The notes under the pieces: model-generated
Seen by the model: the letters and a program-made list of their open reading frames with translations, nothing else
Databases searched by the model: none
What the model was told of the DNA's origin: nothing
Virus record (IMG/VR): IMGVR_UViG_2667527592_000002
Origin: a virus
Lineage: Duplodnaviria > Heunggongvirae > Uroviricota > Caudoviricetes
Reading direction: 5' to 3' (one strand)
Length of the DNA stretch: 64,000 nt
Position numbers and translations under genes: made by a program
Part shown: in pieces, positions 17,122 through 59,287 of the stretch
Numbering within the stretch: the first letter of the stretch is position 1
Layout: every line of letters begins with the position of its first letter

Positions 17122-17996
17122 GCCACTACCTCTTCGAATTTCAACTCCAATTGGTCACCCCAGATTTCACATGATTCGGAACACGAACCAGTATCAAACC
17201 GCTTGGCCTGCACCATCGCCTGATACAAATTTCTGTAGTCGCTGTCGGCATACATTCTGGCAATCCCGTCAAGCGTCAGGTGACCACGGTACATAACGTC
17301 TTTACCTGTTCTGCGATGACCATCCCTGACGTGTTTGCCTGTAACCAGTTCATTAAAAACCCGCATCAGACCTGGTTCGTCTTTACATGCAAGCCCCAGC
17401 TTTTGCGTTGACTTTTTGATGCAAAAAACACAGTTCCCGAGGTGCTCCGGGATTTGCAAATCAAAAGGTTGTTTTCGCCACCACCGGATAACATCCGACT
17501 TATCAAAATCTGACAGCTCGGCAAGATACCGGACGCCCGGTTTCGGTTTCAGCCTACGGGGTTCGTCCGCACGAATACCCAGCCATGTGATGTAATTCCC
17601 TCGCCCAAAATGGTCATCGCAATATTTCGTGAAAGGGGTGAGTTTTAGCCTGTCAGTACAGAACGCGCCGCCGATGTATGGCGTACCGTACTTTTTAACC
17701 ATGTCCATAAACGGTTTAAGCACCGGCATTCGCGTCTGAATATCCTTTGGTTCCCATTCCGTATAACCATTTGGCTGCCCAAGTTCTGGATTTATATCGA
17801 CCTGCAACACCGTTAGCGGTACATTCCAGAACTTCACAACCTCACGAATAAAGCGATACGTCAGAGGATGTTCACAGCCGGTATCCATAAAAATGAAATG
17901 GACGCTAGCGCCAGCTTTTCGCTGTGCTTCCATCAGATGAACGAGATAAGCCGATGTTCGTCCACCTGAAAAGCTGACGACTTGATGCATACTCAC
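17118..17996 (-). CDS. PAPS reductase-family protein (PP-loop ATP pyrophosphatase fold)
   Basis: VVSFSGGRTSAYL ... IFMDTGCEHPLTYRFI parallels the CysH N-terminal region. Confidence 0.8.
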   Translation of the reverse strand: MSMHQVVSFSGGRTSAYLVHLMEAQRKAGASVHFIFMDTGCEHPLTYRFIREVVKFWNVPLTVLQVDINPELGQPNGYTEWEPKDIQTRMPVLKPFMDMVKKYGTPYIGGAFCTDRLKLTPFTKYCDDHFGRGNYITWLGIRADEPRRLKPKPGVRYLAELSDFDKSDVIRWWRKQPFDLQIPEHLGNCVFCIKKSTQKLGLACKDEPGLMRVFNELVTGKHVRDGHRRTGKDVMYRGHLTLDGIARMYADSDYRNLYQAMVQAKRFDTGSCSESCEIWGDQLELKFEEVVA

Positions 17997-17999
17997 GGT

Positions 18000-18692
18000 T
18001 TATTCCTGAACGCGCTTAAACTCGATTACCCATACCCACGGGTTAGATAGCCAGTTATCCTGCCCGTAAATACTGCGCCAGATATCACCAAAACCAACGC
18101 GATAAACAGCTTCCGGCGGCGTAATTTTGTACATCGCCGGAGATGCGCCTTCTGCTTTAGCATCTGCCTCGCTCATATCACGCAGCCGTTCCACACGCAC
18201 GTCGGTAATTTCCAGCAAAATGCGCGATGCCCAGCGCGGCATGTGAATTGATGGACGCCACCCGCCATCAAATTTTTCATTCACAGTGTGAGGTTTCCAG
18301 TCGGCATCATCGGGTATCGACCACAAGCCGTAATCACCCGGCTTTTGCTCACAACTGGCCCGATAAATCCTTGCTGCGTTCTTCTCATCGCCACGACAAA
18401 GGTTGTCGTTCCAGTCCACACTGCAACCATCCTCATTGCCTAATATCGCCCACGCCTCACGGACCCATATGCGATCACCAACGTTACCGAACGGGCATAA
18501 ACCATGTTCAGGTGCATCCATAACGTGGGTATAGACACCATTGCGTTTCTTGGTCGGTTTACGGATAACCAGGCAGTTATCGGCCCTGACATTTTTTACA
18601 GGTCGGCGAGTCTGCGTCTTCCTTCCTTCGAGGATGGCCCTGACCATCTCATCGTTAAAAATCATCCCGCGTTCTTTCATTTTTTGATCCAC
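18000..18692 (-). CDS. hypothetical protein (230 aa)
   Basis: ORF track; N-terminal MIFNDEMVRAILEGRKTQTRR motif common in phage proteins. Confidence 0.5.
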   Translation of the reverse strand: MDQKMKERGMIFNDEMVRAILEGRKTQTRRPVKNVRADNCLVIRKPTKKRNGVYTHVMDAPEHGLCPFGNVGDRIWVREAWAILGNEDGCSVDWNDNLCRGDEKNAARIYRASCEQKPGDYGLWSIPDDADWKPHTVNEKFDGGWRPSIHMPRWASRILLEITDVRVERLRDMSEADAKAEGASPAMYKITPPEAVYRVGFGDIWRSIYGQDNWLSNPWVWVIEFKRVQE

Positions 18693-18696
18693 CTCA

Positions 18697-19692
18697 TCAG
18701 TTATTGAACGTGATCACTCCGCGCTCGATGGCGAAGTCGAAAAGCTGGTTAGCTGCTACGTAAAGGCGTATGCCATGTGCTTTTTCCCATGCCCGGACAT
18801 CGTTTTCTGCGCTTCTGGCGCAGTCATCGCAAAGAGGAACAGCCCAGCGGTCGTGTTCGTTTAACGAGCGGGCGCGGTACATGAATGGGTGATTAACCTT
18901 GCCGCCGCAGCCTACACACGGGCGAGACACCACAAACCGGAGATAAGCCGGGCTTTTTCCGAGTAAGGTTTTTGGACGGCGCATATATAGGAGGCCAGAA
19001 TCTTCATCGACGGACAGATTGACGATCTGCTCTGCGGAAATATCCACCAGCTCGCGGGTACTATGCTCCCAGGTAATATCCGACTCTTTCAGAGTGCCGG
19101 TAGGGATTTCAGTTTTTGGCTGACAAAATGCAATGCGACCAGCTTCATCAGGCAGTTCGTCTTTAAGATTCCGGCGAATGGCCCAAAAGGTGAGTTCAAC
19201 CATGCTCAGATCGCGATCTGGCGGAAGTTTTAACTCGCTGGCAGCCCAGTTCATAATCCAGTTGGCGCGATTCAGTGACAGTTGGTCTTCCAGCTTGCCG
19301 TATCCCTTCATCATGTATTCCGCATCATGCTTCCAGCACAGGCGAACGGCAGAACCGTTATAGAAATGGGTGGTTAACTGGTGGCTGCAATCGCGCTTAT
19401 CATGCGCCTGGCAATCGTGAATGTTGGTGCTAACCCAGTGAACGAGAGAATCCTCACCACCTAACGCGTTAAATACGCGCTCACTTTGAAAAAAGGGTGC
19501 CAGTGACTGGTTGGTAACCAGTGAATAATTCAGGTCAACGACACCATCAGGGGTGTTTTCAGCCTGTTCACGCGGCAATGGGGATATAAGAAAACGACGT
19601 CCTGCGCCGATGTAATTGCTGGTGGGCTTATCTACAGGAAAGACAGCCACACCAGTTTCATTTACGACATATGGGGTGATTATTGCACTCAT
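18697..19692 (-). CDS. hypothetical protein with C-terminal Cys-rich zinc-ribbon-like motif (331 aa)
   Basis: ORF track; CVGCGG ... CDDCA. Confidence 0.5.
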   Translation of the reverse strand: MSAIITPYVVNETGVAVFPVDKPTSNYIGAGRRFLISPLPREQAENTPDGVVDLNYSLVTNQSLAPFFQSERVFNALGGEDSLVHWVSTNIHDCQAHDKRDCSHQLTTHFYNGSAVRLCWKHDAEYMMKGYGKLEDQLSLNRANWIMNWAASELKLPPDRDLSMVELTFWAIRRNLKDELPDEAGRIAFCQPKTEIPTGTLKESDITWEHSTRELVDISAEQIVNLSVDEDSGLLYMRRPKTLLGKSPAYLRFVVSRPCVGCGGKVNHPFMYRARSLNEHDRWAVPLCDDCARSAENDVRAWEKAHGIRLYVAANQLFDFAIERGVITFNN

Positions 19693-21283: not shown

Positions 21284-21528
21284 TGTGGTGGCTCCTGCTT
21301 TTCTGCCTTCAATACCATGCGCGAACCATCATCCAGCTCCCAATTAATTTCACCGCCTTCAGCCATGACTAGATGCCAAACGAGTTGTGCGGCCTCGTTG
21401 GTTACATCACGACCGCGATCATTGCCGACACGACGTTTTGTTCCATCCCCTAAGTCACGCATTTTTGCCAACACGATGGTTTTTGATAGCGGTGAAAAAC
21501 CAAGCTGTAGTCGTGCGGTATTACTCAC
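21280..21528 (-). CDS. hypothetical protein (82 aa)
   Basis: ORF track. Confidence 0.4.
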   Translation of the reverse strand: MSNTARLQLGFSPLSKTIVLAKMRDLGDGTKRRVGNDRGRDVTNEAAQLVWHLVMAEGGEINWELDDGSRMVLKAEKQEPPQ

Positions 21529-22322
21529 TGTTTACCTCCTTTTCGAAGCTGTTCGGCGATATCTTCGAGAACGCCATCAGAGAATGAGCGGTCAAAATCG
21601 CCTTCCCGCGCATTAGCCATAAACTCAGTAGAGGTAAGAATCATCCGGGCAATATCCGCGGCGTTCTTCGCAGTATCATCAATAAAACCAGCTTCCCAAG
21701 CAGCCAGCATCCTGTTCGCCACAAAGTAAGCGCCCTCCTTGCGTGCTTCAGTCTTCACTTCATCCAGGAAAGTGTCGGTCGCAGGAGTGGTTTTTTGTGG
21801 TGATAGGGCGATACGAATTGTTTCAAGAGCTGGATCTATTTCCACTGTTGGCACCTTGATAAAACCAAGCTGCACGCCATTCATAATGAACGTGCGGCGA
21901 TCCTCACATATCGCCTTCAGTCTCGCATTCTCCGCAGCCAGCGCCGCGCGATTACCCTCCAGCTCTGCAATGCGCTGTTTTGCGGCATCAAGTTCAATCG
22001 ATAATTTTTCCAACTGCTCTTTATGCTTCTTGTATTCCTGATATGCGTGCCAAGACTGACCTTTGCGCACACTATCAGTAATATCAGTAATCTGTTCTGG
22101 TGTTAGCGTGGTCAGTGGCTGTGCTGGGAAAATCAGCACTTTCCCGGAATCCCAATCAAAACCAGCGTGAATTGACTGAACCTCAACTGAGGGTGTTGAA
22201 CCAATGCTGCCAGGCGAATGAACAACGATCGTTACATCCATATCGCGACGATGGCTGTGGTTATTGGACAAAATACGATTCACCAACTCAGAAAATTTGG
22301 AGAATTTCATGCGGAGCCTCAA
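21525..22322 (-). CDS. coiled-coil protein; C-terminal domain paralogous to 22726..23229
   Basis: Shared block AAENARLK / AAENALARK and similar C-terminal halves. Confidence 0.5.
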   Translation of the reverse strand: MRLRMKFSKFSELVNRILSNNHSHRRDMDVTIVVHSPGSIGSTPSVEVQSIHAGFDWDSGKVLIFPAQPLTTLTPEQITDITDSVRKGQSWHAYQEYKKHKEQLEKLSIELDAAKQRIAELEGNRAALAAENARLKAICEDRRTFIMNGVQLGFIKVPTVEIDPALETIRIALSPQKTTPATDTFLDEVKTEARKEGAYFVANRMLAAWEAGFIDDTAKNAADIARMILTSTEFMANAREGDFDRSFSDGVLEDIAEQLRKGGKQ

Positions 22323-22729
22323 TATGCAAAATAGACAGTTGCCACACCGTTATAGTGATCAAACGATACGGCGTTTACTTCATAGCTGGCAGGAAGCTTC
22401 GAGCCGAGAACGTATCCGGGCCACGTTTTCCATGGAATTTCTCTACTCTCACTATCCCCATATACCGTACATCCAAGCGAACCTACAGCCTCGTCAGAAC
22501 GTTTGCCGCATGTTATGAAACCTATATTTTTCTTGCTGGCCTTAATGGCGATTGGGTGAACACTGGCTGATGCATTGGCAGCACGCTGTGACTGTTGGTT
22601 TGCGATATTCGCAGAGTTCGCAGCAGCTACAGCAGCCGTGGTCGCGGCGGTAGATGCCACAATAACTGCTGAAGCCTGCGCCTGTTGGGTAATGGTCAGC
22701 AATGCCGCCACAAAAATCATCTTCTTCAC
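22319..22729 (-). CDS. secreted protein with signal peptide, C-terminal aromatic residues (136 aa)
   Basis: MKKMIFVAALLTITQQAQA signal-like N-terminus; ends VYFAY. Confidence 0.5.
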   Translation of the reverse strand: MKKMIFVAALLTITQQAQASAVIVASTAATTAAVAAANSANIANQQSQRAANASASVHPIAIKASKKNIGFITCGKRSDEAVGSLGCTVYGDSESREIPWKTWPGYVLGSKLPASYEVNAVSFDHYNGVATVYFAY

Positions 22730-23229
22730 TTGTCAGCTCCTTTGCGAATCTGTTCCGCCCATTCTTCAAGGGATTTCTCCGCATATTCACCGGACAGGCC
22801 ATCAATCGGGTGCGATTCATTAGCCAACTCTTCTTTCGCTGACAGAATCATGCGCGTAACGTCGAAAACTTCACGTAAAGACTTATTGATAAATCCGTGG
22901 TTGAAAGCAGCAGCAAGACGGCTTGCGGTATAGTTAATCCCCTCGTTGCGAGCCTCCGCACGAATTTCAGCCAGGAAAGCATCGGTGACTGGCATATTTC
23001 CTGTTGCCTTCATGGCCTCCAAAATAACCAGAACGCCATCTCTCCCTACCACCTCGCAGATAACCTCGGTGTTGTCGCCAACAACATCGCAGAATGCCTG
23101 AACTGCTTTACGAGCAAGTGCATTCTCCGCCGCTAGCGCAGCACACGCTTTCTCAAGTCGGGAAATTTCCGTTACATACTCAGCGTTACGCTCTGCCAGT
23201 TGCGCGGGCGTTAAACCTTCAGACTTCAT
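22726..23229 (-). CDS. coiled-coil protein, paralogue of 21525..22322 C-terminal domain (167 aa)
   Basis: ORF track; paralogy seen by eye. Confidence 0.5.
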   Translation of the reverse strand: MKSEGLTPAQLAERNAEYVTEISRLEKACAALAAENALARKAVQAFCDVVGDNTEVICEVVGRDGVLVILEAMKATGNMPVTDAFLAEIRAEARNEGINYTASRLAAAFNHGFINKSLREVFDVTRMILSAKEELANESHPIDGLSGEYAEKSLEEWAEQIRKGADK

Positions 23230-27022: not shown

Positions 27023-27334
27023 ATGAAAAAAATAGATTTCACTTATTCTGCCGCCACAATCCAGCGACGTTTCAGTCTCATAAGGGAAGTGGAACTATCA
27101 AAAAACTTGTATCAAATTCTACTGGATGAAGAGTTTTCACTGATGGTTATAGCAGAAAAATTAGCTATGCCGAACGACCGGCACAAGGTCATAGCCAGCC
27201 TCGATCTGGTGACAAACAGATACTGGGAGAAAGAGGAACTACATGAGGCGGGAGTAATTCGTGACCTGATGGAGAATTCCGTTCCCCGCCGCTATCGTGC
27301 AGGGAACGGCATCTCCGTGGTTAAAGGTGTTTAA
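27023..27334 (+). CDS. hypothetical protein (103 aa)
   Basis: ORF track. Confidence 0.4.
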   Translation: MKKIDFTYSAATIQRRFSLIREVELSKNLYQILLDEEFSLMVIAEKLAMPNDRHKVIASLDLVTNRYWEKEELHEAGVIRDLMENSVPRRYRAGNGISVVKGV

Positions 27335-27723
27335 AGCTCACCTGCGCGCTGTTTTTCAAGCACAGATTTAACATTTGGCGCTTTCCCTTTAAAAGAATGG
27401 AAAGTGCCACATTTTTCTGTTTTAACCTCGCGCAGAGCTTCGCCATCGGCGTTCTGCCATTGATGGGATAATGTCATATCACCGCGAGAAGGAACATCCA
27501 GCGAGTACAGCGTGTAAGTTCCCCCCATCTCCGCATACTCCTGGAACACATAGCTCATTACGTCAGATTCAGTTTTTCGGTGTGCGTTATCAACCTTATT
27601 CCCATTCAGAAATATGGCATCTGGATAGATTTTTATATCAAACCGACCGCACTTAACTTGTAAATTTCCGGCGCTCGCGATCAAAGGGAAAGACGCCAGT
27701 AAAGCAATAGCCAATCTTTTCAA
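27331..27723 (-). CDS. secreted protein with signal peptide (130 aa)
   Basis: MKRLAIALLASFPLIASA signal-like N-terminus. Confidence 0.5.
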   Translation of the reverse strand: MKRLAIALLASFPLIASAGNLQVKCGRFDIKIYPDAIFLNGNKVDNAHRKTESDVMSYVFQEYAEMGGTYTLYSLDVPSRGDMTLSHQWQNADGEALREVKTEKCGTFHSFKGKAPNVKSVLEKQRAGEL

Positions 27724-27743
27724 TTCTGCCTCCGCTGCGTAAC

Positions 27744-28367
27744 TTATTGCCCGTATTTTTTACACCATTGCTCTGCCATTTGTTTGGCTAAAGGCCCGGC
27801 TACTGCACTGTATTCTGCTGTTTTACTTTGCACACATGAAGCAGATGGTTTTTTATTTCGCTGCTCGGTTAGTTTGCGCTCATAAGCCATCATGCTATCG
27901 AACCCGGCAATATCACTTTGGCGAAGCATTCCCTTTTTAACCAAAAATTGCTGCCCCTCTGGCACCAACGCAAGCATAAAAAGTGGTTGCAATAACTCAC
28001 CTAATCCTTGCTGGCGATACACTTCGAATTGCTGCCATCCCTGACTTAATCTGGAAAGAGTATCTTTGGTTGAATAACCTGTTTTTGTTATAGCTTTGTC
28101 CGTCAGATATGCTGTATATGCAAAAACGCAAAAGTCAGTTTTACCAATAAACTGAGTTCCAACAGGCCGTAATGGAATGCCCTCCCTCTTGCAAAAGTCC
28201 ATAATTGCCGCTTGTGAATGATCCCCACCAGCGTTATTCATAACCTGCTGCCCTGCCCTGAATTGTGCAGGTAACGCAGTTGCATTGGCAGTATTAACAG
28301 ATACGCATCCCAACATAGCCGCGAGCGCGGCCCCTAAAACCCTTAACTTCACTACACCATCCTTCAT
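27744..28367 (-). CDS. secreted/periplasmic protein with signal peptide (207 aa)
   Basis: Hydrophobic N-terminus ending ANA; ORF track. Confidence 0.5.
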   Translation of the reverse strand: MKDGVVKLRVLGAALAAMLGCVSVNTANATALPAQFRAGQQVMNNAGGDHSQAAIMDFCKREGIPLRPVGTQFIGKTDFCVFAYTAYLTDKAITKTGYSTKDTLSRLSQGWQQFEVYRQQGLGELLQPLFMLALVPEGQQFLVKKGMLRQSDIAGFDSMMAYERKLTEQRNKKPSASCVQSKTAEYSAVAGPLAKQMAEQWCKKYGQ

Positions 28368-29424: not shown

Positions 29425-29617
29425 GTCATTCACTCCGTTTAATTTTTAATCTAATGCCAGCAAAGGAAGCTGGCCCCCGCATAAAGATTAATGAAAGTCA
29501 CTTGTCACCAGTGAGGGGATTTATGAACCACATCCCCCTGAACTGGTGGCCTGTCTGTTTCTCGCATTTCACACCCTGCATACAGTTTCCCCCAGGTTAT
29601 GACTGAGAGGCTTTGTT

Positions 29618-38533: not shown

Positions 38534-40195
38534 TTAACCTAACTTCGCCCAGGTATCACGCAGCCCAACGGTGCGGTTAAATACCGGTTTTTCCGCCGTA
38601 GAATGGCGGCTGTCGAGGCAGAAATAACCTTCACGCTCAAACTGGAATGCTTTACCCGCTACCGCTTCTTTCAGCGACGGTTCAGCAAAGCCTTGTTTGA
38701 TCACCAGCGATTCCGGGTTAATCACCGACAGGAAATCATCCGCAGCACCTGGGTTCGGTACACTGAACAGACGGTCGTACAGGCGAATTTCAACCGGCAG
38801 CGCATGTGCCGCGCTCACCCAGTGAATAACGCCTTTCACTTTACGACCATCTGCCGGATCTTTGCTTAAGGTGTCGGCGTCATAAGTACAGAAGATGGTG
38901 GTGATATTGCCTTCGGCATCTTTCTCCACGCGTTCAGCCTTAATGACGTAAGCATTACGCAGACGCACTTCTTTACCCAGCACCAGACGTTTGTACTGCT
39001 TGTTAGCTTCTTCGCGGAAATCGGCGCGGTCGATCCAAATCTCACCGCTAAACGGCACCTGACGGCTACCCATTTCCGGTTTGTTTGGATGGTTCGGCAT
39101 GGTGACCATTTCGCCTTCGCCCTGGTAGTTTTCGATAACCAGTTTCACCGGATCGATAACCGCCATTGCGCGCGGGGCATTTTCGTTGAGATCTTCACGG
39201 ATGCAGGATTCCAGCGACGCCATCTCAATGGTGTTGTCCTGCTTGGTCACGCCGATGCGTTTGCAGAACTCACGAATAGAAGCCGCAGTGTAACCACGAC
39301 GACGCAGACCGGAAATGGTCGGCATACGCGGGTCATCCCAGCCTTCAACGTGCTTGTCGGTCACCAGCAGGTTCAGCTTACGCTTGGACATCACGGTGTA
39401 TTCCAGATTCAGGCGCGAGAATTCGTACTGGCGCGGGTGAACAGGAATGGTGATGTTGTCCAGTACCCAGTCATACAGACGACGGTTGTCCTGGAACTCA
39501 AGCGTACACAGAGAGTGCGTAATACCTTCCAGCGCATCGCTGATGCAGTGGGTGAAGTCGTACATCGGGTAGATGCACCACTTGTTGCCAGTCTGGTGGT
39601 GTTCAGCAAACTTAATACGGTACAGCACCGGGTCGCGCATCACGATAAACGGCGAAGCCATGTCGATTTTCGCACGCAGGCAGGCTTTACCTTCTTCAAA
39701 ACCACCGGCACGCATTTTTTCGAACAGCGCCAGGTTCTCTTCAACGCTGCGGTCGCGGTACGGGCTGTTTTTACCCGGCTGCGTCAGGGTGCCGCGGTAT
39801 TCGCGGATCTGTTCCGGCGTCAGTTCGTCAACATACGCCAGGCCTTTGTTGATCAGTTCAACAGCATAGGCATGGAGTTTGTCAAAATAATCGGAGGAGT
39901 AACGGATGTTGCCAGACCAGTGAAAACCTAACCATTCAACGTCGTTTTTAATCGACTCAACGTACTCGATATCTTCTTTTACCGGGTTAGTGTCGTCGAA
40001 ACGCAGGTTGCACTGGCCTTTATAGTCCTGGGCGATCCCGAAGTTCAGGCAGATAGATTTCGCATGACCAATATGCAGATAGCCATTCGGTTCCGGCGGG
40101 AAACGGGTATGTACTGTGGTGTGCTTACCACTGGCCAGATCTTCATCGATGATCTGACGAATAAAGTTAGTCGGGCGGGCTTCTGCCTCACTCAT
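38534..40195 (-). CDS. glnS: glutaminyl-tRNA synthetase
   Basis: 553 aa; near-identical to E. coli GlnRS from memory ([17 protein letters not shown]...; HIGH in YLHIGHAKS; MSK in VMSKRKL). Confidence 0.95.
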
Positions 40196-42024: not shown

Positions 42025-42981
42025 TTAACCGATTGCTTTCAGGCCATGAACAAGAGCAAGTTGCGGGTCATCCGCCACGAAGAAACGGTCATCACGAATA
42101 TTAACTTGCTCGCGAATTGCATCTGCCACCAGCGGTGCGCCACCACCGATCACCATGACATGCGTATATCCTTTAAAGTCGCCAATCACATCAAGAACTC
42201 GGGTACGCAGACGGTCAATGCTTGCGGCAATGGCCTTTTTCACATCACCAATCGCTGATGGGTCATTGATATTGTCGTTCAGATAATCTTCATCGTGGCG
42301 GTTAATAATGAGCTGATCAACATTGTAATTTGACGTTTCGGTATTGGCCCTTGCAAGTGCTTGCCTTACTTCCCTGGTGACCAGTGATACACCAAGATTC
42401 GAATCGCCAAAAACACGGGAAACTGCCGTCATTTGCCCGGCGACCATTGAAACATCAAGGGTAGTTCCACCCAAATCGACGATAAGAACAGAATGGGCAG
42501 GGTTCAGATTGTCGCACAGGCCAATTCCTGCCGGAATAGACTCCGGTCGTACCGTAACTTTCTTAATCGTGAACACATTGCCTTTATTCAGCGTGACGGG
42601 GCGCATAAGGCTGGCTTTCTTGCGCTCGATGTTATCGAGATTGTATTGCGCGTCGTCGTCGTAAAACTCCGCCAGAGGCAGCGTGACCACAATTTCTACT
42701 TCCTGCGGCTCAATACCGCTTGTCAGCAGGGCATGGTGAACAGCCAGGACGTTAAGCGGGCTGTATTGCCATTCCACGTTATTCGTCGGCAGAACATCTG
42801 GCGAGATCAAATCATACGAATACTTCTCGTCGTCAATGACATAGTTAAACGGCTTGCCAGCACCAAATGTTGCTGACCATCCGCGCTTAAAGCTGTTAGG
42901 ACTGATGTGAGTGCGAGTTTCCCCGTCGTGCTCCCACAGCATTTTGATATTGGTTGAACCATCATCGATAAAAATGCGCAT
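42025..42981 (-). CDS. parM: ParM/StbA actin-like segregation ATPase
   Basis: MRIFIDDGSTNIK ... HISPNSFKRGW ... VLAVHHALLTSG collinear with R1 ParM; ATG 42981 after GGAG. Confidence 0.85.
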   Translation of the reverse strand: MRIFIDDGSTNIKMLWEHDGETRTHISPNSFKRGWSATFGAGKPFNYVIDDEKYSYDLISPDVLPTNNVEWQYSPLNVLAVHHALLTSGIEPQEVEIVVTLPLAEFYDDDAQYNLDNIERKKASLMRPVTLNKGNVFTIKKVTVRPESIPAGIGLCDNLNPAHSVLIVDLGGTTLDVSMVAGQMTAVSRVFGDSNLGVSLVTREVRQALARANTETSNYNVDQLIINRHDEDYLNDNINDPSAIGDVKKAIAASIDRLRTRVLDVIGDFKGYTHVMVIGGGAPLVADAIREQVNIRDDRFFVADDPQLALVHGLKAIG

Positions 42982-43007
42982 CTTCTTGCTCCACTTCTGA
43001 GACACAT

Positions 43008-43162
43008 TTGAGAATCAAAATGTAATTTTAAAAGAGAAGCACCCAAAAATCCACACCAAACGAGACAAAAAAGAGCGCTTGTTGAGTTTATTTTGAGAAT
43101 ATCTTAATCACCCACTGAATGATGGCCTGATAGTGAGATTTATTTGAGAATGAATTGAGAAT
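43008..43162. repeat. parC-like centromere repeats (TTGAGAAT x4 plus degenerate copies)
   Basis: TTGAGAAT at 43008, 43093, 43144, 43155; variants TTGAGTTT (43082), GTGAGATT (43132); upstream of parM. Confidence 0.45.
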
Positions 43163-43248
43163 ACAAAAAATATTCCGAAATTTAACTCTCCGTTTGAATG
43201 ACGAAATAACAAAGTGATGACAATAGGAGGATAACCAGGAGGTGAAGA

Positions 43249-43533
43249 ATGAGCGCAATAGCCACCAGCGACACCCTTTGTTCTGGTCACGGAGGATTTC
43301 CGCCGCGACTGGTAGCTGAAACCGTTCCCTGGTTCACCGTTAACGGTAAGCCAGTTGTTGTAGATGGTGCCATGTTTCCCAGTCACACTGACGGTAACAG
43401 TGCACACCCAGGGGCAGCTGTATCGACGCGAGTATGGTTTTCGATAGGTGGAAAGGGAGTTGTCTGTGTAGGCGATCCGCTTTCTTGTGGTTCTGTTATC
43501 GCCAACGGCGAGGATATTTTTCAGGTTGCATAA
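43249..43533 (+). CDS. PAAR-motif spike-tip protein
   Basis: 94 aa; CSGHGGFPP ... PSHT ... GSVIANG pattern; AGGAGG RBS. Confidence 0.6.
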   Translation: MSAIATSDTLCSGHGGFPPRLVAETVPWFTVNGKPVVVDGAMFPSHTDGNSAHPGAAVSTRVWFSIGGKGVVCVGDPLSCGSVIANGEDIFQVA

Positions 43534-44339
43534 TGCTTGATTCAATAGGTGAAGTTAAAGCCTTCAAAATTCTGTCAGATGCCGGTATCTCTACACCAGA
43601 ATCTATAACCATAAGCCGGGCAGCTTCTGTAAAAGCCTCATCGCTCGCCAGCGCCATACAGGGAATAGTTCACGCCGATAAAACCTATCCTGATTCTGTT
43701 TCGGCCTGGGCTACTCAATTGCTTGGCTTTTCTGAACAGCTCAATGAGGCCAGCAAAGCGTCTTCATTACTGGCTGATTCTCTTTCCCCATACACCAAGC
43801 CATCAGAGCTGTTACAGATGAAGATTGGCTGGGAATGCTACGCAAAAGGTAACGAGCTGCCCCTCATACCTGCTTTCGCCCTTGTTGAGGGAATGGGTAA
43901 TGTTTCCATTCCGCAATCTCTAACGGACGCATTGACGGCGCTAAAACTTGATGCTCTGAAAACCGCCATGAACGCCATTAACGCAAAAATTGAAGCTGCC
44001 GGAAGTGCTGGTGGTGGTGATAGCAATGGTGGACAGGGTGGTGCTGGGGGCGCTCAGGCTCCAGTCATTACTCAGGATGAAATTGATGCTTTACGGGAAG
44101 CAGTGACAGCCGCCGAAGCTTTACTCTCCGAAATTAACTCAGCAAGTGAGAGTGTCGTAGCCCTTACAGGTCGCATTAAAACGTCAACCACTCAGGCAAC
44201 CAAAGGTTTAGAGAACGCTGTCGCCATCACGTTAACTGGTTCTCTACTGGATGATGCAGTAATGAGTCCGGCAATCAGTTTAATCATGCCACAAGGCGTT
44301 ATCGATGCACTCCAAAAGAACACCAAAAAGGAACCATAG
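43533..44339 (+). CDS. hypothetical protein, Gly-rich central linker (268 aa)
   Basis: ATG overlaps PAAR stop (TAATG); track's longer 43434 start is an out-of-context extension. Confidence 0.45.
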   Translation: MLDSIGEVKAFKILSDAGISTPESITISRAASVKASSLASAIQGIVHADKTYPDSVSAWATQLLGFSEQLNEASKASSLLADSLSPYTKPSELLQMKIGWECYAKGNELPLIPAFALVEGMGNVSIPQSLTDALTALKLDALKTAMNAINAKIEAAGSAGGGDSNGGQGGAGGAQAPVITQDEIDALREAVTAAEALLSEINSASESVVALTGRIKTSTTQATKGLENAVAITLTGSLLDDAVMSPAISLIMPQGVIDALQKNTKKEP

Positions 44340-44394
44340 CAACACCACTTAGGAACACAAAAGGATGTGAATTGGTACATGTTTAACACCAAAA

Positions 44395-44868
44395 ATGAAC
44401 CTGAAGAGGATGGTTTTGAAAAAGATAATTTTGATTGTAATTGCGCTTTTAGCCATTTCTGGAATTTACCGAACAACGACGGCAGTTATCGAACACATCA
44501 GGTATGTCCGATCGCTTGAAGACTCAAAATCACAACTGGAAAGCACGAACAACACGCTTTCTACCGCATTACAGTTAAGTGAGAACGCTCGCTCAGCCAT
44601 GCTGACCGAAAACGAAAGAATTAAAGCACTGGAAAAGGAGTACCAGCGCAAAACAGCAGAACTGAATGCCAACCTAATCAAACAACGGGAGGAAAGCCAG
44701 AATGAAATCACTCGCCTTGAAAATGCGTTACGCCGTGCTGGGATTAACGATGTGCGTGTGCCTGATGACGTTATCAGGATGCAGCGGGAACGGGCAAAAG
44801 CCATCAACCAGCGTGCCAGTGAAAATTACCGTAGAAGCCACCAGCAAGCCGCAGGCAAATCTGATTGA
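44395..44868 (+). CDS. Rz-like inner-membrane spanin (i-spanin)
   Basis: N-terminal TM (IILIVIALLAISGIY) then coiled coil; alternative start ATG 44410 has better RBS. Confidence 0.55.
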   Translation: MNLKRMVLKKIILIVIALLAISGIYRTTTAVIEHIRYVRSLEDSKSQLESTNNTLSTALQLSENARSAMLTENERIKALEKEYQRKTAELNANLIKQREESQNEITRLENALRRAGINDVRVPDDVIRMQRERAKAINQRASENYRRSHQQAAGKSD

Positions 44869-45034
44869 TTACTCCCCTTGTTTAGTGCCAGAAGACACGC
44901 CAGTGCTGTTAAACAAGTATCCGACATACGCTGAACAGTTATTCAGCACGATCGACGAATGCAACCAACGAAACGCACTGAATAACCAAAGAAACAGGGA
45001 GATTTGGGAAGGGAAGGGGGATCAAGGCTCCTGA
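44702..45034 (+). CDS. Rz1-like outer-membrane lipoprotein spanin (o-spanin), overlapping Rz in +1 frame
   Basis: Lipobox LMTLSGC after short signal; Pro-rich; starts inside Rz and extends past its stop. Confidence 0.5.
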   Translation: MKSLALKMRYAVLGLTMCVCLMTLSGCSGNGQKPSTSVPVKITVEATSKPQANLIDYSPCLVPEDTPVLLNKYPTYAEQLFSTIDECNQRNALNNQRNREIWEGKGDQGS

Positions 45035-45480
45035 AGCCAGATGTCCTGGCTGTCAGCTTCTTCGAAACCGTGACAGACGTTAAAGTCACTCAAACGATAC
45101 TGACGCTGACGGCCCCTATTTCGCTCATGCCAATGCATATATCCACCAGCAAATGCCAGCGGACAATCGCTATAGTCTATGTAACCAATACCATTCCCCA
45201 AACGTGCTTCGCGCGCACCAGCTTTCCAGGACAGTAGAAAAGAGTCACGATCCGCCAGCATAACAACAAAATCGTCCGGATCTCCGATACAGTGAAGAAT
45301 ACCTGCCTTACATAACTGCTTGAGCGCTTTTGACTGGCTCAGGATGTCTTCTCCGTAATACTGAAAACAATCATCAACAACAGCGGGATAGCCTGCCGGG
45401 GGATTCAGGCTGGTTGGTATAGCTGACGCGATCGCCAGCATTAAGCGATATTGTGTTTTTGATGGGTTAACGTGACTCAT
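45022..45480 (-). CDS. hypothetical protein (152 aa)
   Basis: ORF track. Confidence 0.45.
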   Translation of the reverse strand: MSHVNPSKTQYRLMLAIASAIPTSLNPPAGYPAVVDDCFQYYGEDILSQSKALKQLCKAGILHCIGDPDDFVVMLADRDSFLLSWKAGAREARLGNGIGYIDYSDCPLAFAGGYMHWHERNRGRQRQYRLSDFNVCHGFEEADSQDIWLQEP

Positions 45481-45496
45481 TTTGTCCCTTGTTTAC

Positions 45497-45889
45497 TCAT
45501 TGTCGCCATGCATTTTTTAACTCAGGAATATCTGCCATTTCAATTAACTTGCGAAGTCCAGCACTGACTTTCCCATTGCCAACCATAGCAAGCCAATCTC
45601 TTACAGCTTTCGGCATGTAGAGCGTTGCAGTTACCGGCTCTTCAACCCTGGCAGGACATCCGCATACAGGCCATTTAATTGATTCCATAACTTCGGATGC
45701 CGGGGTGAGGGCGGGGACATTGAGTATATCTCTACCAGAAAACTGGATAACGATCCGTTCAGCGAGCGAGAGTATCTCACTTTCGGCAAGAATTGATGCC
45801 AACTGCGCCTCAACAAGAAAGCGACTTGTTGTGTTCAGAGAGTGGCTCTTAGCGCCATTTTTATACGAAACAAAGATTCGATACGCCAT
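45497..45889 (-). CDS. hypothetical protein (130 aa)
   Basis: ORF track; operator-like motif 12-31 bp upstream. Confidence 0.45.
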   Translation of the reverse strand: MAYRIFVSYKNGAKSHSLNTTSRFLVEAQLASILAESEILSLAERIVIQFSGRDILNVPALTPASEVMESIKWPVCGCPARVEEPVTATLYMPKAVRDWLAMVGNGKVSAGLRKLIEMADIPELKNAWRQ

Positions 45890-45900
45890 AACTCTAATGA

Positions 45901-45920
45901 TTTGTGTTAGAAAACTAAAA
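45901..45920 (-). promoter_or_regulatory. operator-like motif (minus strand TTTTAGTTTTCTAACACAAA)
   Basis: Recurring motif between divergent 45889 and 46048 genes. Confidence 0.45.
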
Positions 45921-46047
45921 TTAAATCACATAACAACATGCGTGTTAATAGATTTTATTTTACTAAACCTATTGACTAAATCACAAAGTAGGTATTGTTA
46001 GCCCGTCAAAAGAACCTTCACGCCGCGCCCGAATTTAGGGCTTAACC

Positions 46048-47745
46048 GTGAATAAAAACATTCAGCCAGCTCGTGATCGCGAGCGCGAGATTATGAATCG
46101 GGCGGCAAGCGTCATGGCTATGACCGTCGATCCGACCACCGATGCAGCAGGCAACATGATTGCTGACCAGGCAGTAATGATGGAAAACCTGGATAAAGCA
46201 ATCCAGAAAGTGCCTATGTTTGAAGGCGTAAATCCAGAGGTCGCTCGTCAGATCACTGGTGGGTGGGCTATGTCTCTGCATGAGTATAAACGTCAACATG
46301 GTCATTACCCGGCAAGTGACATCCTGGCGAACGCACACATGGCTCTTGAACGCCTGATGACTGAATGTGCCAGTGATACCCATGAAGGCACGGGTAAGGC
46401 AATGTTTGAGTCTGTCGCGCAATCAATGCGTAGCTCTGACGGCGTAATGAAAGTTGCTCAATATGCTGCTCTAATTCTGCCTGCCTCTCTGGGCGCTGCT
46501 ACCAGTGATGCCTGTACTTTTGTTCCTTGTGATCGTGACGAGTCAAATATTTATGAACTGGTCAACGTAGCAGGCACAAAATTCGGCACCTTCAAACAAG
46601 GTGACGAACTGAATATGCAGTCAGCTGGTGTTTATTCTCAAATGAAGCGCCTGTATACCCTTTCCACTAAAGGGGATGGCAGCACCAAAACCTTCCAGTT
46701 CGACATCCAAAATTTTGAGGGACAATCCTGCCCGCTTCGCGCTGGTTATAACAAACTGCTGATCAACCGCAAACCGTCCAAAGTTGACGACGGCGATGGC
46801 AACCTTTATTTCAATGCTAAAGACAGCAAAGGCAATGCTTTCTCAGCGACTGCCAAAGTTGCCTATGACACTGGTGTCATTGACATTACATTTACCCAGG
46901 CTCCGCCAGAAGGTACTGAAATTGCTGTTCAGGTCGAAATTAACATCGAGCGCAATCCAAGCCTGATTCCTGTGATCAACCAGGCTATGCGTAAGTACGA
47001 AGTTCGTCCGTCCCAGTACGTAATTGCTTCCGAACACACGGTAATGTCCGCATCCGATTTAAGCCGTGAGCACGGCCTTGAATTAGCGGCACTTCAGTTC
47101 TCCGCGATGCGTAACTGGATCTCCCATGAAACCGACATCATGCGTCTGCGCACCCTGGTATTCCATACCGTTTATGGTCGTGAATTTGATGTGGCTCTGC
47201 CGGAAGCTCAAAACTATGAGTCCTGGGTCGGCCTCCTGCGTCACGTAGTAAACGCTCTGTCTCAAGAAATGGCAAATCGTACCCTGACAACGGGTATTCG
47301 TGGCGGCTTTGCTGGTGGTGACGCCGCGAACTTCCTGCGCTCTCTGCCTCCACAGCACTTCCAGATCGCACCAGGTTACGTTCAGTCGCCGTATGTACAG
47401 TACATCGGCACCCTGTTTGGCACGATTCGTATTTACGAAGTGCCGCAACCTGTCTGTGAGCAATTCCAGGCACAGGGATATGACTTCGGGCTGGATGACA
47501 TCTTCTTCTATGGGCGTGGCGAAGGCATCGGTAAAGCCGGTCTGATTGCTGGTGATGCAGTCCCTGCAATCCCTTACGTGCATGAAACCAATCCGTCTCT
47601 CGTTAACCGTACCACTCTCTGGGGCAGTGCCATCAACGAAGTACATCCTCGCAACGGTGAAAACTACTTCACCCGCCTGCGTCTGACTCGTGCCAAAGAA
47701 GGCGCTATCGACATGCTGTCAGGCAAGGTTAACGAAAAAAAGTGA
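46048..47745 (+). CDS. putative major head (capsid) protein
   Basis: 565 aa; first large ORF of virion block, followed by Ig-like ORF; by size and position only; GTG start uncertain. Confidence 0.4.
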   Translation: MNKNIQPARDREREIMNRAASVMAMTVDPTTDAAGNMIADQAVMMENLDKAIQKVPMFEGVNPEVARQITGGWAMSLHEYKRQHGHYPASDILANAHMALERLMTECASDTHEGTGKAMFESVAQSMRSSDGVMKVAQYAALILPASLGAATSDACTFVPCDRDESNIYELVNVAGTKFGTFKQGDELNMQSAGVYSQMKRLYTLSTKGDGSTKTFQFDIQNFEGQSCPLRAGYNKLLINRKPSKVDDGDGNLYFNAKDSKGNAFSATAKVAYDTGVIDITFTQAPPEGTEIAVQVEINIERNPSLIPVINQAMRKYEVRPSQYVIASEHTVMSASDLSREHGLELAALQFSAMRNWISHETDIMRLRTLVFHTVYGREFDVALPEAQNYESWVGLLRHVVNALSQEMANRTLTTGIRGGFAGGDAANFLRSLPPQHFQIAPGYVQSPYVQYIGTLFGTIRIYEVPQPVCEQFQAQGYDFGLDDIFFYGRGEGIGKAGLIAGDAVPAIPYVHETNPSLVNRTTLWGSAINEVHPRNGENYFTRLRLTRAKEGAIDMLSGKVNEKK

Positions 47746-54668: not shown

Positions 54669-55490
54669 TTGAACATTCCAAAATTCCCATTGCCTTCCCG
54701 TCCTGAGACAGAAATTCAGTTCCACGCCCCTACCGTGAAGGATGCGCTGAAATATTCTGACCTGAACCCGGCAGAAGATGAGGCAACTACTACAGAGTAC
54801 CTTAACTCTATGCAGGATGGTGAAATTAACGACAGTGCTAACTGGACAGTTCAGGATCGCAGAACTGCTCTTTGGTGGATATTTGTTAATTCGCGCCCCG
54901 ATGCAGTAATGACTTACTCCTATGAGTGCAGTCACTGCGGTAATACGCATCACGCCGATATAAACCTGGGCGATCTGGCTCAAACAGTAGAGATACTCAC
55001 TGTACCGCCTTACGTAAAAACCAACGTACCGGTAAACGGTGTACCAACTGACTGGATACTTAAACCATTAACCGGGAAAGGCGCGGAACTCCTTGAACGT
55101 ATGCGTGCGTCACTTCCTGATATGAAAAGCCCTGAATACAGTGCAGGCGTGGCCCGTATGCGCATTGCAGAACTCGCTTTATGCACGGCACTGGACGACG
55201 ATCCGGAAGACTTCACTCAAGCAGCTAACCGACGCTTCGACATCATTGAAAGCATGGCGCTTGAAACCGAGTTTACACCGCTTGTGGCTCGCATACAGCT
55301 TATGCAAAAAGACCTACGCCACGGCCTGAAAATGTCTATTGAGAGAGGCACAAGCCGACTGATCCTGCCTCCGCAACATTGCAAAAACGCTAAGGAGGGT
55401 GCAGATGTGACAACCACACTGTACGTCCCCTTTCTCAATAGAGAGTTTATCCCATCAATTAGATCTGAATGGATGGCTAACCATTATTAA
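54669..55490 (+). CDS. hypothetical protein (273 aa)
   Basis: ORF track. Confidence 0.5.
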   Translation: MNIPKFPLPSRPETEIQFHAPTVKDALKYSDLNPAEDEATTTEYLNSMQDGEINDSANWTVQDRRTALWWIFVNSRPDAVMTYSYECSHCGNTHHADINLGDLAQTVEILTVPPYVKTNVPVNGVPTDWILKPLTGKGAELLERMRASLPDMKSPEYSAGVARMRIAELALCTALDDDPEDFTQAANRRFDIIESMALETEFTPLVARIQLMQKDLRHGLKMSIERGTSRLILPPQHCKNAKEGADVTTTLYVPFLNREFIPSIRSEWMANHY

Positions 55491-55504: not shown

Positions 55505-58500
55505 ATGGATATCAGCCCGTTAGCGACGTTGAACAATTACCGCAATGGCGAGCACTCCATATGTCAAAAGCCCTGGAAGAAAAATACAAAGCTCAAGCCG
55601 GGAAACGTTGATCGCGCTGGTAAAAGAGAGGTTATTTTGAAAGAAAATAAAGACCGTATCGCAATAATTGACGCTATTCAGGAAGCGAGCACAAACGAAC
55701 TTAAAGCTCTTGCTGAGGTAAAAGACGCCATTCTTTCTGGGGCAAGCACCATAACTCAACAGGACGAAAGGCAAGGCAGAGTTAGCAACAGACTATCACG
55801 CAGGCGTAAAGACTACGAGCAAAGTACATCTGATAGCGTTAGAGATGTCCAAACTAACCCATATAAAAAACGTCTCCCTGCTAAAAAGGAGAGGGCACCG
55901 ATAAACCAAACCGTGGACCGCTCTATCGTTGCAACGAACACACCAGAAAGTGTTCGTTCTGTGCAATCACGTCAGAACATCCGAAAATCGGACGGTTCTA
56001 TACCGGTAGCTGCTAATTCAACTCCTCTTGAACCACAATCCCCCCAAAGTCTAAAAGGCCCGCTGCGGGATAGTAATGGACGTTTTGTATCCCAGAAAAG
56101 CAATGAGGATGTAGCCAGAAAAAAAGAACTGCAGAACGCACGTAAAGCCGACGCAAAATTACAAGCTGGCTTTCTCAGAAAGCTGGGTTCCATTATGGGG
56201 GTAGATGGCAATCAGTCTTCCAGTGAAGAGTCTTTAACAAATGCAGCTGGTGTCGGTGCTGGTGGGCCGTTATGGATGGCAGCTCGTGGCATGTACGACA
56301 TAACTAAAGAGATCACAGGTAAAGCAGAATCTCTTAAAGAATGGGTAGAAAAGGGGAAAAAAGAAACATCAACCTCGAAAGCGATATCACCAGTAATTAC
56401 TTATCCGGCGGCGGTGAATTCTCAAAAAGCAACATCTGCAAAAGCGTTCAATAACGCTGTTGAGACAAAATCCGCACAAGCAGTAGAAGAGCAAACCAAA
56501 ATCCTTCAGACCAATGACAACAAAATAATTGATGGTCTGGAAAATGTTTCTGACGAGATAGTTAAGCTTCGGAAATCAGTGTCTTCTGGAAATAAGTTCG
56601 GCTTAAGTGATCTCTGGAAAAATCGAGCAAGCAGAAGAAATAAAATCAATATTGGTGATCAGACGGGAAAAAATAAACGGAACAAATCGAAAAGGAAAGG
56701 CCGCAATCTTGGGAAAAAAGCACTCTCCGCTGGCGAAAAAGTTGCTGCCGGTAGCGCTGCGGCTGGCACTGGTGTCGGAGCAGCAAAAGTAGTTAAAAAT
56801 AAGATCAGCAAACCCAAAGATGTAAGCACTATCAGCGATACATCAAAGGGGATTGCAAAGGAAACAAAAAATACTGCTAAGGCCGTGAAGTCAGCTGGTG
56901 TTGTGGCTGAAGATGCCACCATTAAAACCGGCGAAGCCATTGCAAAGAAAAAAACTGAATCTGTAGCCCTCAAAAGTGCAGCAAAAATAGGTGTTAAATC
57001 AGCAGCATCCACAGCGGCAAGAGCGGTCCCTATCATCGGTTCGCTGGCAATGGCTGGATATGACGCCATAGATGGTTACACAGATACAGAGGCGCAAAAG
57101 GCAGCCTTTGGTTTAAGTGACGATGATGCTGTATCCGAACAGAAAAAAACGGCTTACGCAACAGCTAATGTGCTCGATATGGGGGGCTTGGTGTCGGGCG
57201 CAACGAACTTGATAGGAAAAGGAATTTCTGCGCTAGGATTTGAAAGAGCAGGTGAAAAACTTCAGAATTTTGATACCGGAGATATTGCTCGTGGTGTTAA
57301 CGGCGCGGTAGATATCACCAAATCTGTTTTTGGTAGCCTTAAGGATACATTTTTATCCACTGACGAAAACACGAAACAAGTAAAAAAAGCTGTTGAAGAC
57401 GGCACCAAAAAAACTGTCGATGCGATTCATTCTCTAGGTGAACAATTACAAGGTGGGCGTAATGGCGAGGATGGAGTTGGTGAGCACGGATATACTTCTC
57501 CAACTGAATTTAGTGCACCTGCCAACAACACCATTGCAGCGGATCTGAATATTGGCGGCAGCAACGCTAAAAACCGCAATTACCGAAATAATAATCTCGG
57601 CAATCTTGTTTTTGCCAACCAGGAAGGGGCGACGCTGGAATCGCCAAATGCAAAAGGGGAACAACGTTTTGCGCGATTTAACACACCTGAAGAAGGGATC
57701 AGGGCACTGGCAAACCAGGTTTCCAGCTATTACAACGGCACCAGTGCCGCAGCGGGATATCAGAAGTTACAGACGGTATCCAGCATCATTTCAAAATGGG
57801 CACCGCCAAATGAGAACAATACTAACCAATATATTGATAACGTCAGTAAATATCTTGGTGTATCGCCTAATGAAAAAATAGATGTCAGCAACCCAGAGGT
57901 TATGACGCAATTAGTTCGTGCAATTGCGACGAAAGAAGGCGGAAATCCGGCAGTTAATAATGAGTTCATTAAGAATGCACTTGGAGCATTTAACACAAAC
58001 ACTGGTCGATGGGAGGGACAATTCTCTGACGAAACATTGGCGCGGATTAATAAAATTCAGAAAGAAAATGGTGGTCAGCTAATTGCCCGCGATTCGCAAT
58101 ATAGTGTTGGTCGCAAGGTAAAATATGCTAATGGAAAATCTCCAGCTCAACCAGTTTTGAATGCCGTTCCGACAGCAACACAACAGCCAATTGAGGTTGC
58201 ACAACATGCCCAGGCAGTCAAAAAGCCACAAAAAACAGGCAATCAATCGCAACCGATTAATCCAGAGAATGTTGATGTTAATACTGGCTCGCCATCAAGT
58301 CTGCTTGAGAGATTAATCGCTATAAATGACAGCGGGGTAGGTAATTTATTTGGAGGTGCGGCTACCAGCCTTGCTGGTACAAGCCTTGGCCTGATTAAGG
58401 ATTTTGCGTCGGCGACTTCGTTTGGTTCTATATCTTCGCTTTCCGAAAAAGCGAAAGGAATGGATCAGGCTCTTACTGAAAAGATATCCAGCTTAACCGG

Positions 58501-59287
58501 TAAATCTTTTGGATTTCAAAAAGCAAGCCAGGTAACTGATATAAGAGACGCTTTACAAAAAAGACCAAAAGCTGAACGCGATATGCCTTCAGTGGATCTT
58601 CTTTCCGGTGTTTCTTCGGCAAGTGAGAGTGAAAAAATCTCTGTAAACTCAAGGGGGATTCCAGTTTATGACAATGGATACAAGGTAATTGATGGTGAAG
58701 ATAAGGGGGTACTTGGCTCTTTGTTTGACTCGTCATTAACAGGTCTGAAACGTATTAGCTCTGCTGTGTTACCTGCAATTGGCGATAACGTTTCACGACT
58801 TATTGGTGGGGTAGATGGCACTGGCATTGTTAATGATTTGGTTTATCAGGCTACTGGGCAGAACTCAACAATTGCCAGGGCTATTAGCCCGCTTACCAGG
58901 AGCGCCGGTAGTTGGCTGAATAATGGTATTCAACAAACCGCAGATAGCATTAGAGGTATATCAAACGAAGCCAATAATGCCATATTTGGCTCTGCGTCAG
59001 CCGTGCAAGAACCTTTTCTTGCTATGCCACCACAGCTTCCTACTGTAACAGATCTCGCACGAAGCGGAATAAGACAACCATTAACTACTGACACTATAAA
59101 TAACGATCCTGCTATGTTGAAGGCGCTGGATAACATCTGCTCTATCCTGAACGACCTTCTGAATGTGAACAAGAACAATACAAAAGGCGATCCGGATAAG
59201 GTTGTCAAAACATCGCAGCCGCAACCGCGACCACGTGCTAGCACAACTATTAATGACCCGTCGCTGGATGCTCTGCTTGAGGATTAA
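55505..59287 (+). CDS. tail tape-measure-like protein (Sit-like), possible cell-wall hydrolase region
   Basis: 1260 aa, largest ORF, just upstream of baseplate genes; Ala/Gly/Lys-rich repeats; central NRNYRNNNLGNLVF... block. Confidence 0.55.
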   Translation: MDISPLATLNNYRNGEHSICQKPWKKNTKLKPGNVDRAGKREVILKENKDRIAIIDAIQEASTNELKALAEVKDAILSGASTITQQDERQGRVSNRLSRRRKDYEQSTSDSVRDVQTNPYKKRLPAKKERAPINQTVDRSIVATNTPESVRSVQSRQNIRKSDGSIPVAANSTPLEPQSPQSLKGPLRDSNGRFVSQKSNEDVARKKELQNARKADAKLQAGFLRKLGSIMGVDGNQSSSEESLTNAAGVGAGGPLWMAARGMYDITKEITGKAESLKEWVEKGKKETSTSKAISPVITYPAAVNSQKATSAKAFNNAVETKSAQAVEEQTKILQTNDNKIIDGLENVSDEIVKLRKSVSSGNKFGLSDLWKNRASRRNKINIGDQTGKNKRNKSKRKGRNLGKKALSAGEKVAAGSAAAGTGVGAAKVVKNKISKPKDVSTISDTSKGIAKETKNTAKAVKSAGVVAEDATIKTGEAIAKKKTESVALKSAAKIGVKSAASTAARAVPIIGSLAMAGYDAIDGYTDTEAQKAAFGLSDDDAVSEQKKTAYATANVLDMGGLVSGATNLIGKGISALGFERAGEKLQNFDTGDIARGVNGAVDITKSVFGSLKDTFLSTDENTKQVKKAVEDGTKKTVDAIHSLGEQLQGGRNGEDGVGEHGYTSPTEFSAPANNTIAADLNIGGSNAKNRNYRNNNLGNLVFANQEGATLESPNAKGEQRFARFNTPEEGIRALANQVSSYYNGTSAAAGYQKLQTVSSIISKWAPPNENNTNQYIDNVSKYLGVSPNEKIDVSNPEVMTQLVRAIATKEGGNPAVNNEFIKNALGAFNTNTGRWEGQFSDETLARINKIQKENGGQLIARDSQYSVGRKVKYANGKSPAQPVLNAVPTATQQPIEVAQHAQAVKKPQKTGNQSQPINPENVDVNTGSPSSLLERLIAINDSGVGNLFGGAATSLAGTSLGLIKDFASATSFGSISSLSEKAKGMDQALTEKISSLTGKSFGFQKASQVTDIRDALQKRPKAERDMPSVDLLSGVSSASESEKISVNSRGIPVYDNGYKVIDGEDKGVLGSLFDSSLTGLKRISSAVLPAIGDNVSRLIGGVDGTGIVNDLVYQATGQNSTIARAISPLTRSAGSWLNNGIQQTADSIRGISNEANNAIFGSASAVQEPFLAMPPQLPTVTDLARSGIRQPLTTDTINNDPAMLKALDNICSILNDLLNVNKNNTKGDPDKVVKTSQPQPRPRASTTINDPSLDALLED

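Follow-up and report, generated by a model that had tools for sequence, protein, structure and literature searches.

The locus at 44395–45034 of the 64,000-nucleotide stretch of DNA analysed here (the window) very probably encodes a two-component spanin of the 'overlapped' architecture, carried by a D6-like, P1-related phage-plasmid. An earlier note had described the same pair, an i-spanin with an N-terminal transmembrane (TM) segment and a coiled coil accompanied by a +1-frame lipoprotein ORF with an LSGC lipobox that runs past the i-spanin stop, and this description is borne out by matches to PHROG spanin profiles, by topology and structure predictions, by conservation in 22 of 22 related loci, by purifying selection on the lipoprotein ORF and by correspondence to the ppfA and mlp genes of phage P1. 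The element that carries the pair is closely related to Escherichia phage D6 (MF356679.1), a relative of P1 whose prophage is a plasmid; the 4-kb stretch around the pair shares 99.1% DNA identity with D6, and the window as a whole is 97–99% identical to this coliphage. A BLAST comparison of the whole window gives a collinear match that runs from approximately D6 position 6164 backwards through the record origin to approximately 36117, with a few segments replaced, and it therefore represents about two thirds of a D6-like phage-plasmid, the portion equivalent to D6 ~6.2–36.1 kb being left out.

The candidate i-spanin gene (ORF1, corresponding to D6 orf55, with which it shares a 100% identical product) spans 44395–44868 on the plus strand when its longest frame is taken from ATG 44395, yielding a protein of 157 residues. 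This is the ORF put forward in the earlier note, and it is present as described, but its conserved start is probably TTG 44416 (150 residues), as judged from comparison with related loci drawn from public assemblies and IMG/VR (22 in all, including three lineages, L005, L007 and L028, with i-spanin identities of 45–48%). ATG 44395 is without a Shine-Dalgarno sequence; L021 has AAA and L025 has CAA in its place, and the ORF1 frame of L028 is broken by a stop codon shortly before the conserved start. TTG 44416 follows the Shine-Dalgarno sequence AAGAGG (44404–44409, plus strand) at a distance of 6 nt, and the succession of AAGAGG or AAGGAGG, 6 nt and a TTG or GTG codon at the 44416 position is conserved in L021, L025 and L028. 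The D6 annotators chose the start at 44416 as well, while the PGAP choice, ATG 44410, is also possible; the topology prediction is identical for all three starts.

ORF1 contains a single segment of strong hydrophobicity near its N-terminus (about residues 7–25; the Kyte-Doolittle maximum over 19 residues, 2.48, falls on residues 6–24), whose core IILIVIALLAISGIY (44425–44469, plus strand) is flanked by KK and R and is short, at about 15 residues. Lysine and arginine residues lie on the N-terminal side of this segment, and the protein has no cysteine anywhere; its predicted topology is N-in/C-out (type II). An AlphaFold2 model, computed from a 10-sequence alignment and reaching a mean pLDDT of 86.8, consists of a helix over residues 2–114, a break at residues 115–123 and a second helix over residues 124–153, with the TM segment continuous with the long first helix. 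The linker between the two helices (AGINDVRVP, residues 115–123, 44737–44763, plus strand, as delimited by the secondary structure of the model) coincides with an AG...P.D..R motif that is invariant among relatives and is found in P1 PpfA as well. Searches of PDB sequences with both proteins of the pair returned coiled-coil matches only, all of them non-significant.

The candidate o-spanin gene (ORF2, D6 orf54 with a corrected start; 44702–45034, plus strand) encodes 110 residues, 84 of them in the predicted mature protein, in the +1 frame of ORF1. The two genes share a dual-coding stretch of 167 nt (44702–44868, plus strand), after which ORF2 continues for 166 nt beyond the ORF1 stop. A Shine-Dalgarno sequence of its own, GGGAGG (44687–44692, plus strand), is embedded in the i-spanin coding sequence 9 nt before ATG 44702, and purine-rich equivalents are present in L005 and L007. 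The N-terminus of the product, MKSLALKMRYAVLGLTMCVCLMTLSGC, is composed of a basic N-region (K2, K7, R9), a hydrophobic core and the lipobox L24-S25-G26-C27 (44771–44782, plus strand), recognised by regular expression and composition and followed by serine at the +2 position. Cys27 is thus the predicted lipidated residue, and the serine at +2 predicts sorting to the outer membrane. The AlphaFold2 model of this protein (mean pLDDT 66.6) shows a signal helix, a disordered segment at residues 26–48 (pLDDT below 50) and helices within residues 66–102 (pLDDT 85–89). Periplasmic cysteines are confined to the o-spanin, with none in the i-spanin and two (C60 and C87) in the mature lipoprotein.

Sequence comparison and randomisation mark ORF2 as a real gene and exclude a chance origin. 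When the codon order of ORF1 is shuffled, a +1 ORF of at least 55 codons that begins with ATG and stays open to the end is kept in 85 of 20,000 shuffles, and a signal-peptidase-II-like N-terminus arises in 0 of the 20,000; among the 258 ORFs of at least 60 residues in the six frames of the whole window, ORF2 alone passes the lipoprotein filter. The overlapped +1 ORF, together with its LSGC lipobox and Cys27, recurs in all 22 related loci (14 distinct sequences), and every relative, like P1 Mlp, has an unaltered LSGCS. When the window, L005 and L007 are compared with one another, the non-overlapping half of ORF2 has a pN of 0.13–0.26 against a pS of 0.74–0.98, indicating strong purifying selection. 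Concomitantly, synonymous sites of the ORF1 frame diverge less within the overlap (0.46–0.63) than outside it (0.72–0.77), the reduction expected of dual coding.

Profile searches place both products among spanins. ORF1 matches three PHROG families labelled as Rz-like spanins (phrog_214, E=7.6e-16; phrog_89, E=1.8e-7; phrog_2466, E=2.5e-4), and ORF2 matches three o-spanin families bearing the same label (phrog_456, E=1.2e-5; phrog_30284, E=6.7e-4; phrog_4306, E=0.012). The best PHROG matches are families of unknown function, phrog_17671 for residues 69–157 of ORF1 only and phrog_17138 for residues 40–110 of ORF2 only. Spanin models of Pfam stay below threshold (O_Spanin_T7, E=0.01 and 16.3 bits with a cut-off of 25; LysC, 11.6 bits with a cut-off of 27), no lambda-type Rz or Rz1 Pfam family appears among the matches at E<=1, and no spanin model of NCBIfam rises above threshold (P2_Rz1, 12.9 bits with a cut-off of 27). 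The sub-threshold scores of the Pfam and NCBIfam models are probably the reason that the i-spanin is labelled 'hypothetical protein' in RefSeq. A tblastn search with both proteins against 50,697 phage records (E<=1e-3) found D6 only, so that the link to P1 required pairwise comparison and synteny, and a collection of 5.8 billion proteins held only close relatives of the two.

This link is provided first by gene order. Upstream of the pair, on the same strand, lie upfC, encoding a PAAR protein (43249–43533; PAAR_motif of Pfam, E=4.5e-6; phrog_281), and a upfB homologue (43533–44339; phrog_1559, E=3e-109; D6 orf56, 'similar to P1 upfB'), the product of which has a further weak scaffold-like match (E=0.046). 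The order upfC-upfB-ORF1-ORF2 is that of upfC (PAAR)-upfB-ppfA-mlp in P1 (NC_005856), and it is found in L005 and L007 too; upfC and upfB precede the spanin pair in every case, be it P1, D6 or these two distant relatives. The ppfA/mlp overlap of P1 (63520–63686) is likewise 167 nt long and in the +1 frame. ORF2 and P1 Mlp, both of 110 residues, are 31% identical (E=1e-8, pairwise) and have in common the LTLSGCSG context of the lipobox and one periplasmic cysteine, although the D6-type o-spanin has two such cysteines and Mlp has one. ORF1 resembles P1 PpfA weakly (21% identity, E=0.039 in a single pairwise comparison), and the two share a C-terminal motif, AG..(R/V).P.D..R..RE. Order and similarity together identify ORF1 as the positional orthologue of ppfA and ORF2 as the orthologue of mlp, and the pair as the D6-lineage counterpart of the PpfA/Mlp overlapped spanins.

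Beyond these four genes the two phages differ. Downstream of the pair P1 has upfA, oriR/repA and parAB. The corresponding place here is taken by two convergent genes without assigned function (phrog_8101 and phrog_7830), followed by the major capsid gene; farther upstream, on the opposite strand, a partition system of StbB and StbA/ParM is encoded, unlike the arrangement in P1. The gene at 45497–45889 on the minus strand was considered as a counterpart of UpfA, with which its product shares a length of 130 residues, but there is no similarity between the two.

SpaninDB lists P1 gp064 (PpfA) as the i-spanin of an overlapped pair whose partner is Mlp (gp063), and ppfA and mlp have been described as the spanin genes of this phage, partially overlapping and forming an operon unlinked to other lysis genes (Bednarek et al. 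2022, PMC9025707). The assignment goes back to predicted features, for which Summer et al. 2007 is cited, and in the words of Bednarek et al. it 'has not been verified experimentally' (PMC9025707); the text of that study exchanges the i- and o- labels of the two proteins, Mlp being the lipoprotein.

As in lambda Rz/Rz1, the prototype of two-component spanins, a type II helical protein of the inner membrane is combined with an outer-membrane lipoprotein whose gene uses the +1 frame, although lambda Rz1 is wholly embedded in Rz while the genes here are overlapped, and the periplasmic cysteines are distributed differently (two in Rz and one in Rz1, against none in the i-spanin and two in the o-spanin here). 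In this last respect the pair is akin to T4 PseT.3/PseT.2, where the i-spanin is also devoid of cysteine and the o-spanin has two; the T4 o-spanin resembles ORF2 in its larger size and predicted C-terminal helix as well, although the T4 genes are separated rather than overlapped and there is no significant sequence similarity. The combination of no i-spanin and two o-spanin cysteines is the commonest in SpaninDB, and both cysteines of the T4 o-spanin are needed (Kongari et al., PMC6139136); at least one periplasmic cysteine in either subunit is found in 507 of 528 known spanin pairs (Kongari 2018, PMC6139136). The locus thus displays the features of two-component spanins, namely TM topology, a predicted helix-linker-helix fold, a lipobox without aspartate at +2, overlapped genes with a separate ribosome-binding site for the second, and periplasmic cysteine. 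Location in or beside a lysis cassette, which is typical of spanins but not obligatory, is absent, and the same exception is documented for P1 (PMC9025707).

Indeed, while lambda Rz/Rz1 reside in the S-R-Rz lysis cassette, the present pair is unlinked from both holin and endolysin, as is ppfA/mlp in P1. The earlier note had remarked that neither gene adjoins the pair and had proposed that lysis genes are dispersed as in P1; the former holds for the flanks and extends to the entire 64-kb window, in which no holin or endolysin was found, and the latter is supported by the layout of D6, with which the window is collinear. There, a LydA-type holin (orf30, phrog_1527, E=8e-39) and LydB (orf29, phrog_1898, E=3e-69) are encoded at 30.7–31.5 kb, a putative peptidoglycan hydrolase of the TIGR02594 type (orf16) at 19.3–19.8 kb, and the spanins at 55.1–55.7 kb. 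These positions place the spanins about 24 kb from lydA/lydB and about 36 kb from orf16, both of which lie in regions outside the window; consistent with this, the D6 LydA, LydB and orf16 proteins have no tblastn match in it, and none of ten ORFs in its non-D6 segments belongs to a PHROG of the lysis category. The product of 55505–59287 (1260 residues), a Sit-like tail transglycosylase, was considered as an endolysin and rejected as a virion protein; it is the sole lytic-enzyme homologue annotated in the matching region of D6. A report on D6-like Salmonella plasmids (PMC6799933) gives the lysis modules as the hydrolase and LydA/LydB, and spanins go unmentioned in it.

The upfC and upfB genes probably belong to the same transcription unit as the pair, for which they are context rather than spanin components, and co-transcription with a gene for a PAAR tail-tip protein suggests late expression. 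A consensus derived from the annotated P1 promoters LPsit, LP23, LP26, LPpmgL and LPhot was searched for in the window and revealed no P1-type late promoter upstream of upfC or ORF1. A generic scan for sigma-70 promoters and terminators over 42900–46100 gave fewer hits than shuffled sequences. The best window match to the P1 late-promoter consensus (-22 box and -10), CAAGTGACTTTCATTAATCT, lies at 29485–29504 on the minus strand with 2 mismatches, upstream of the gene 26 region, a position resembling that of LP26/LPpmgL in P1; two matches at this 2-mismatch stringency are at about chance level (30 of 100 shuffles). At the other end of the pair, the last 13 nt of the o-spanin gene (45022–45034) are shared with the 3' end of the convergent gene 45022–45480 on the minus strand, leaving no intergenic room for a terminator between the converging transcription units.

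In such a spanin the i-spanin would begin with a short basic tail in the cytoplasm and a single TM helix; about 90 residues of periplasmic helix would follow, then a short linker and another helix of about 30 residues. The o-spanin would be translated in the +1 frame from its own ribosome-binding site. After export and lipidation on Cys27, signal peptidase II would cleave it, and the serine at +2 would direct it to the outer membrane, in whose inner leaflet it would sit, tethered by a flexible segment. With lambda Rz/Rz1 and T4 PseT.3/PseT.2 as models, the two proteins would bind each other across the periplasm through their C-terminal parts. Once the endolysin has degraded the murein, the spanin complexes may move laterally and collapse, and the collapsed complex would disrupt the outer membrane or fuse it with the inner one, completing lysis. 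Of this course of events, lipidation of the o-spanin, formation of the complex, the timing of expression and outer-membrane disruption are steps that we infer.

That two proteins of spanin-like architecture should serve another envelope function, with no disruption of the outer membrane at lysis, is unlikely, but the idea has some arguments on its side. They might, for instance, act in superinfection exclusion as a prophage-expressed lipoprotein with a membrane partner, in the manner of the lipoproteins Cor and Llp, or be accessory to the co-transcribed PAAR tail-tip protein and UpfB in DNA entry. Such a role would accord with the upfC(PAAR)-upfB-ppfA-mlp linkage, kept between P1 and the D6 lineage despite protein identities of 21–31%, and with the position of the locus beside the plasmid-maintenance genes stbA/stbB instead of in a lysis cassette. 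The spanin role of the P1 pair rests, moreover, on predicted features (PMC9025707), and CRISPRi knock-down of P1 ppfA or mlp causes no plating defect, both genes having been scored as non-essential for plating in a genome-wide screen (EOP ~0.2 for mlp and ~1.2 for ppfA; PMC10695390). However, spanins are dispensable for lysis in shaken laboratory cultures (introduction of PMC9025707), so that the CRISPRi result is weak evidence against a spanin function. Furthermore, each protein has matches to several spanin PHROGs that are independent of one another and to no family of exclusion proteins, the locus offers the full two-component set of a helical TM protein, a lipoprotein, a +1 overlap, a ribosome-binding site and the cysteine pattern, and no alternative candidate for the spanin turned up in the window or the D6 annotation.

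In a broader variant, lysis is not the role of the pair, or not its sole one, and the two proteins work as a membrane-fusion module with PAAR/UpfB in entry, exclusion or conditional release of virions. This variant is prompted by the persistence of the PAAR/upfB linkage across the deep P1/D6 divergence and by the absence of a plating defect when the P1 genes are knocked down; we consider it very improbable.

The spanin pair that we favour is poorly served by existing records. In GenBank both D6 orf55 and orf54, whose protein sequences are 100% identical to those of the present pair, are deposited as 'hypothetical protein', and the start given to orf54 corresponds to window position 44813, downstream of the lipobox, with the result that the signal peptide and lipobox are lost from the annotation. 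In the one D6-like RefSeq plasmid inspected (NZ_CP122910.1, region 55218–55372) PGAP has left ORF2 unannotated. Overlapped o-spanins are routinely missed in this manner, gene callers being biased against overlapping genes and start codons being misplaced (Kongari et al., PMC6139136). The contention that only ORF1 is real, encoding a coiled-coil membrane protein, and that ORF2 is an untranslated alternative-frame ORF and the 'pair' an artefact of ORF listing could appeal to the missing PGAP call, to a D6 annotation covering the 3' part only and to the roughly 20 member sequences held by the protein database for full-length ORF2 against 445 for ORF1, but it is scarcely credible in view of the known blindness of gene callers to such genes (PMC6139136), the strong Shine-Dalgarno sequence, an open frame with invariant LSGCS in 22 of 22 loci and P1, a non-overlapping half with low pN (0.13–0.26) against saturated pS, the failure of any of 20,000 shuffles to yield such an ORF, and the matches to spanin PHROGs and to P1 Mlp (E=1e-8).

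The 1.9-kb locus is present in 121 plasmids of PLSDB (98 from Escherichia, 17 from Salmonella and 6 from Shigella) and in 101 of 5,426 complete E. coli genomes, where it is plasmid-borne in every case. Those records that were checked call the i-spanin hypothetical and either omit or truncate the o-spanin. The D6-lineage pair is unannotated in public records, while the overlapped P1-type class of spanins to which it belongs is already known, and the main value of the assignment is to correct annotation, the pair having what is very probably an ordinary lysis function in an unusual layout that is already documented. Naming it completes the lysis set of D6, consisting of the holin LydA, LydB, the peptidoglycan hydrolase orf16 and the spanins, and indicates that the dispersed layout of lysis genes seen in P1 is ancestral to the wider P1/D6 group; a spanin pair in the D6 lineage raises no new biological question.

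A few further features of the window touch upon its relation to D6 and P1. Four segments (13200–15100, 17100–18700, 21300–23100 and 27250–28300) have no megablast match to D6 and look like mosaic replacements relative to it; their genes include a PAPS-reductase-like one (17118–17996; phrog_424, E=5e-93) as well as several whose function is unknown. ARAGORN detects a tRNA with anticodon CAT at 284–359 (plus strand), which maps to D6 ~6083–6158, a stretch immediately beyond tciA/tciB that bears no feature in GenBank. Its P1 counterpart is trnI (tRNA-Ile2, CAT), which follows tciC in the corresponding position, and the tRNA found here is probably an unannotated tRNA-Ile2-type gene of D6-like elements. 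Finally, a full-length glutaminyl-tRNA synthetase homologue of 553 residues is encoded at 38534–40195 on the minus strand, corresponding to D6 orf62 ('similar to E. coli GlnS').
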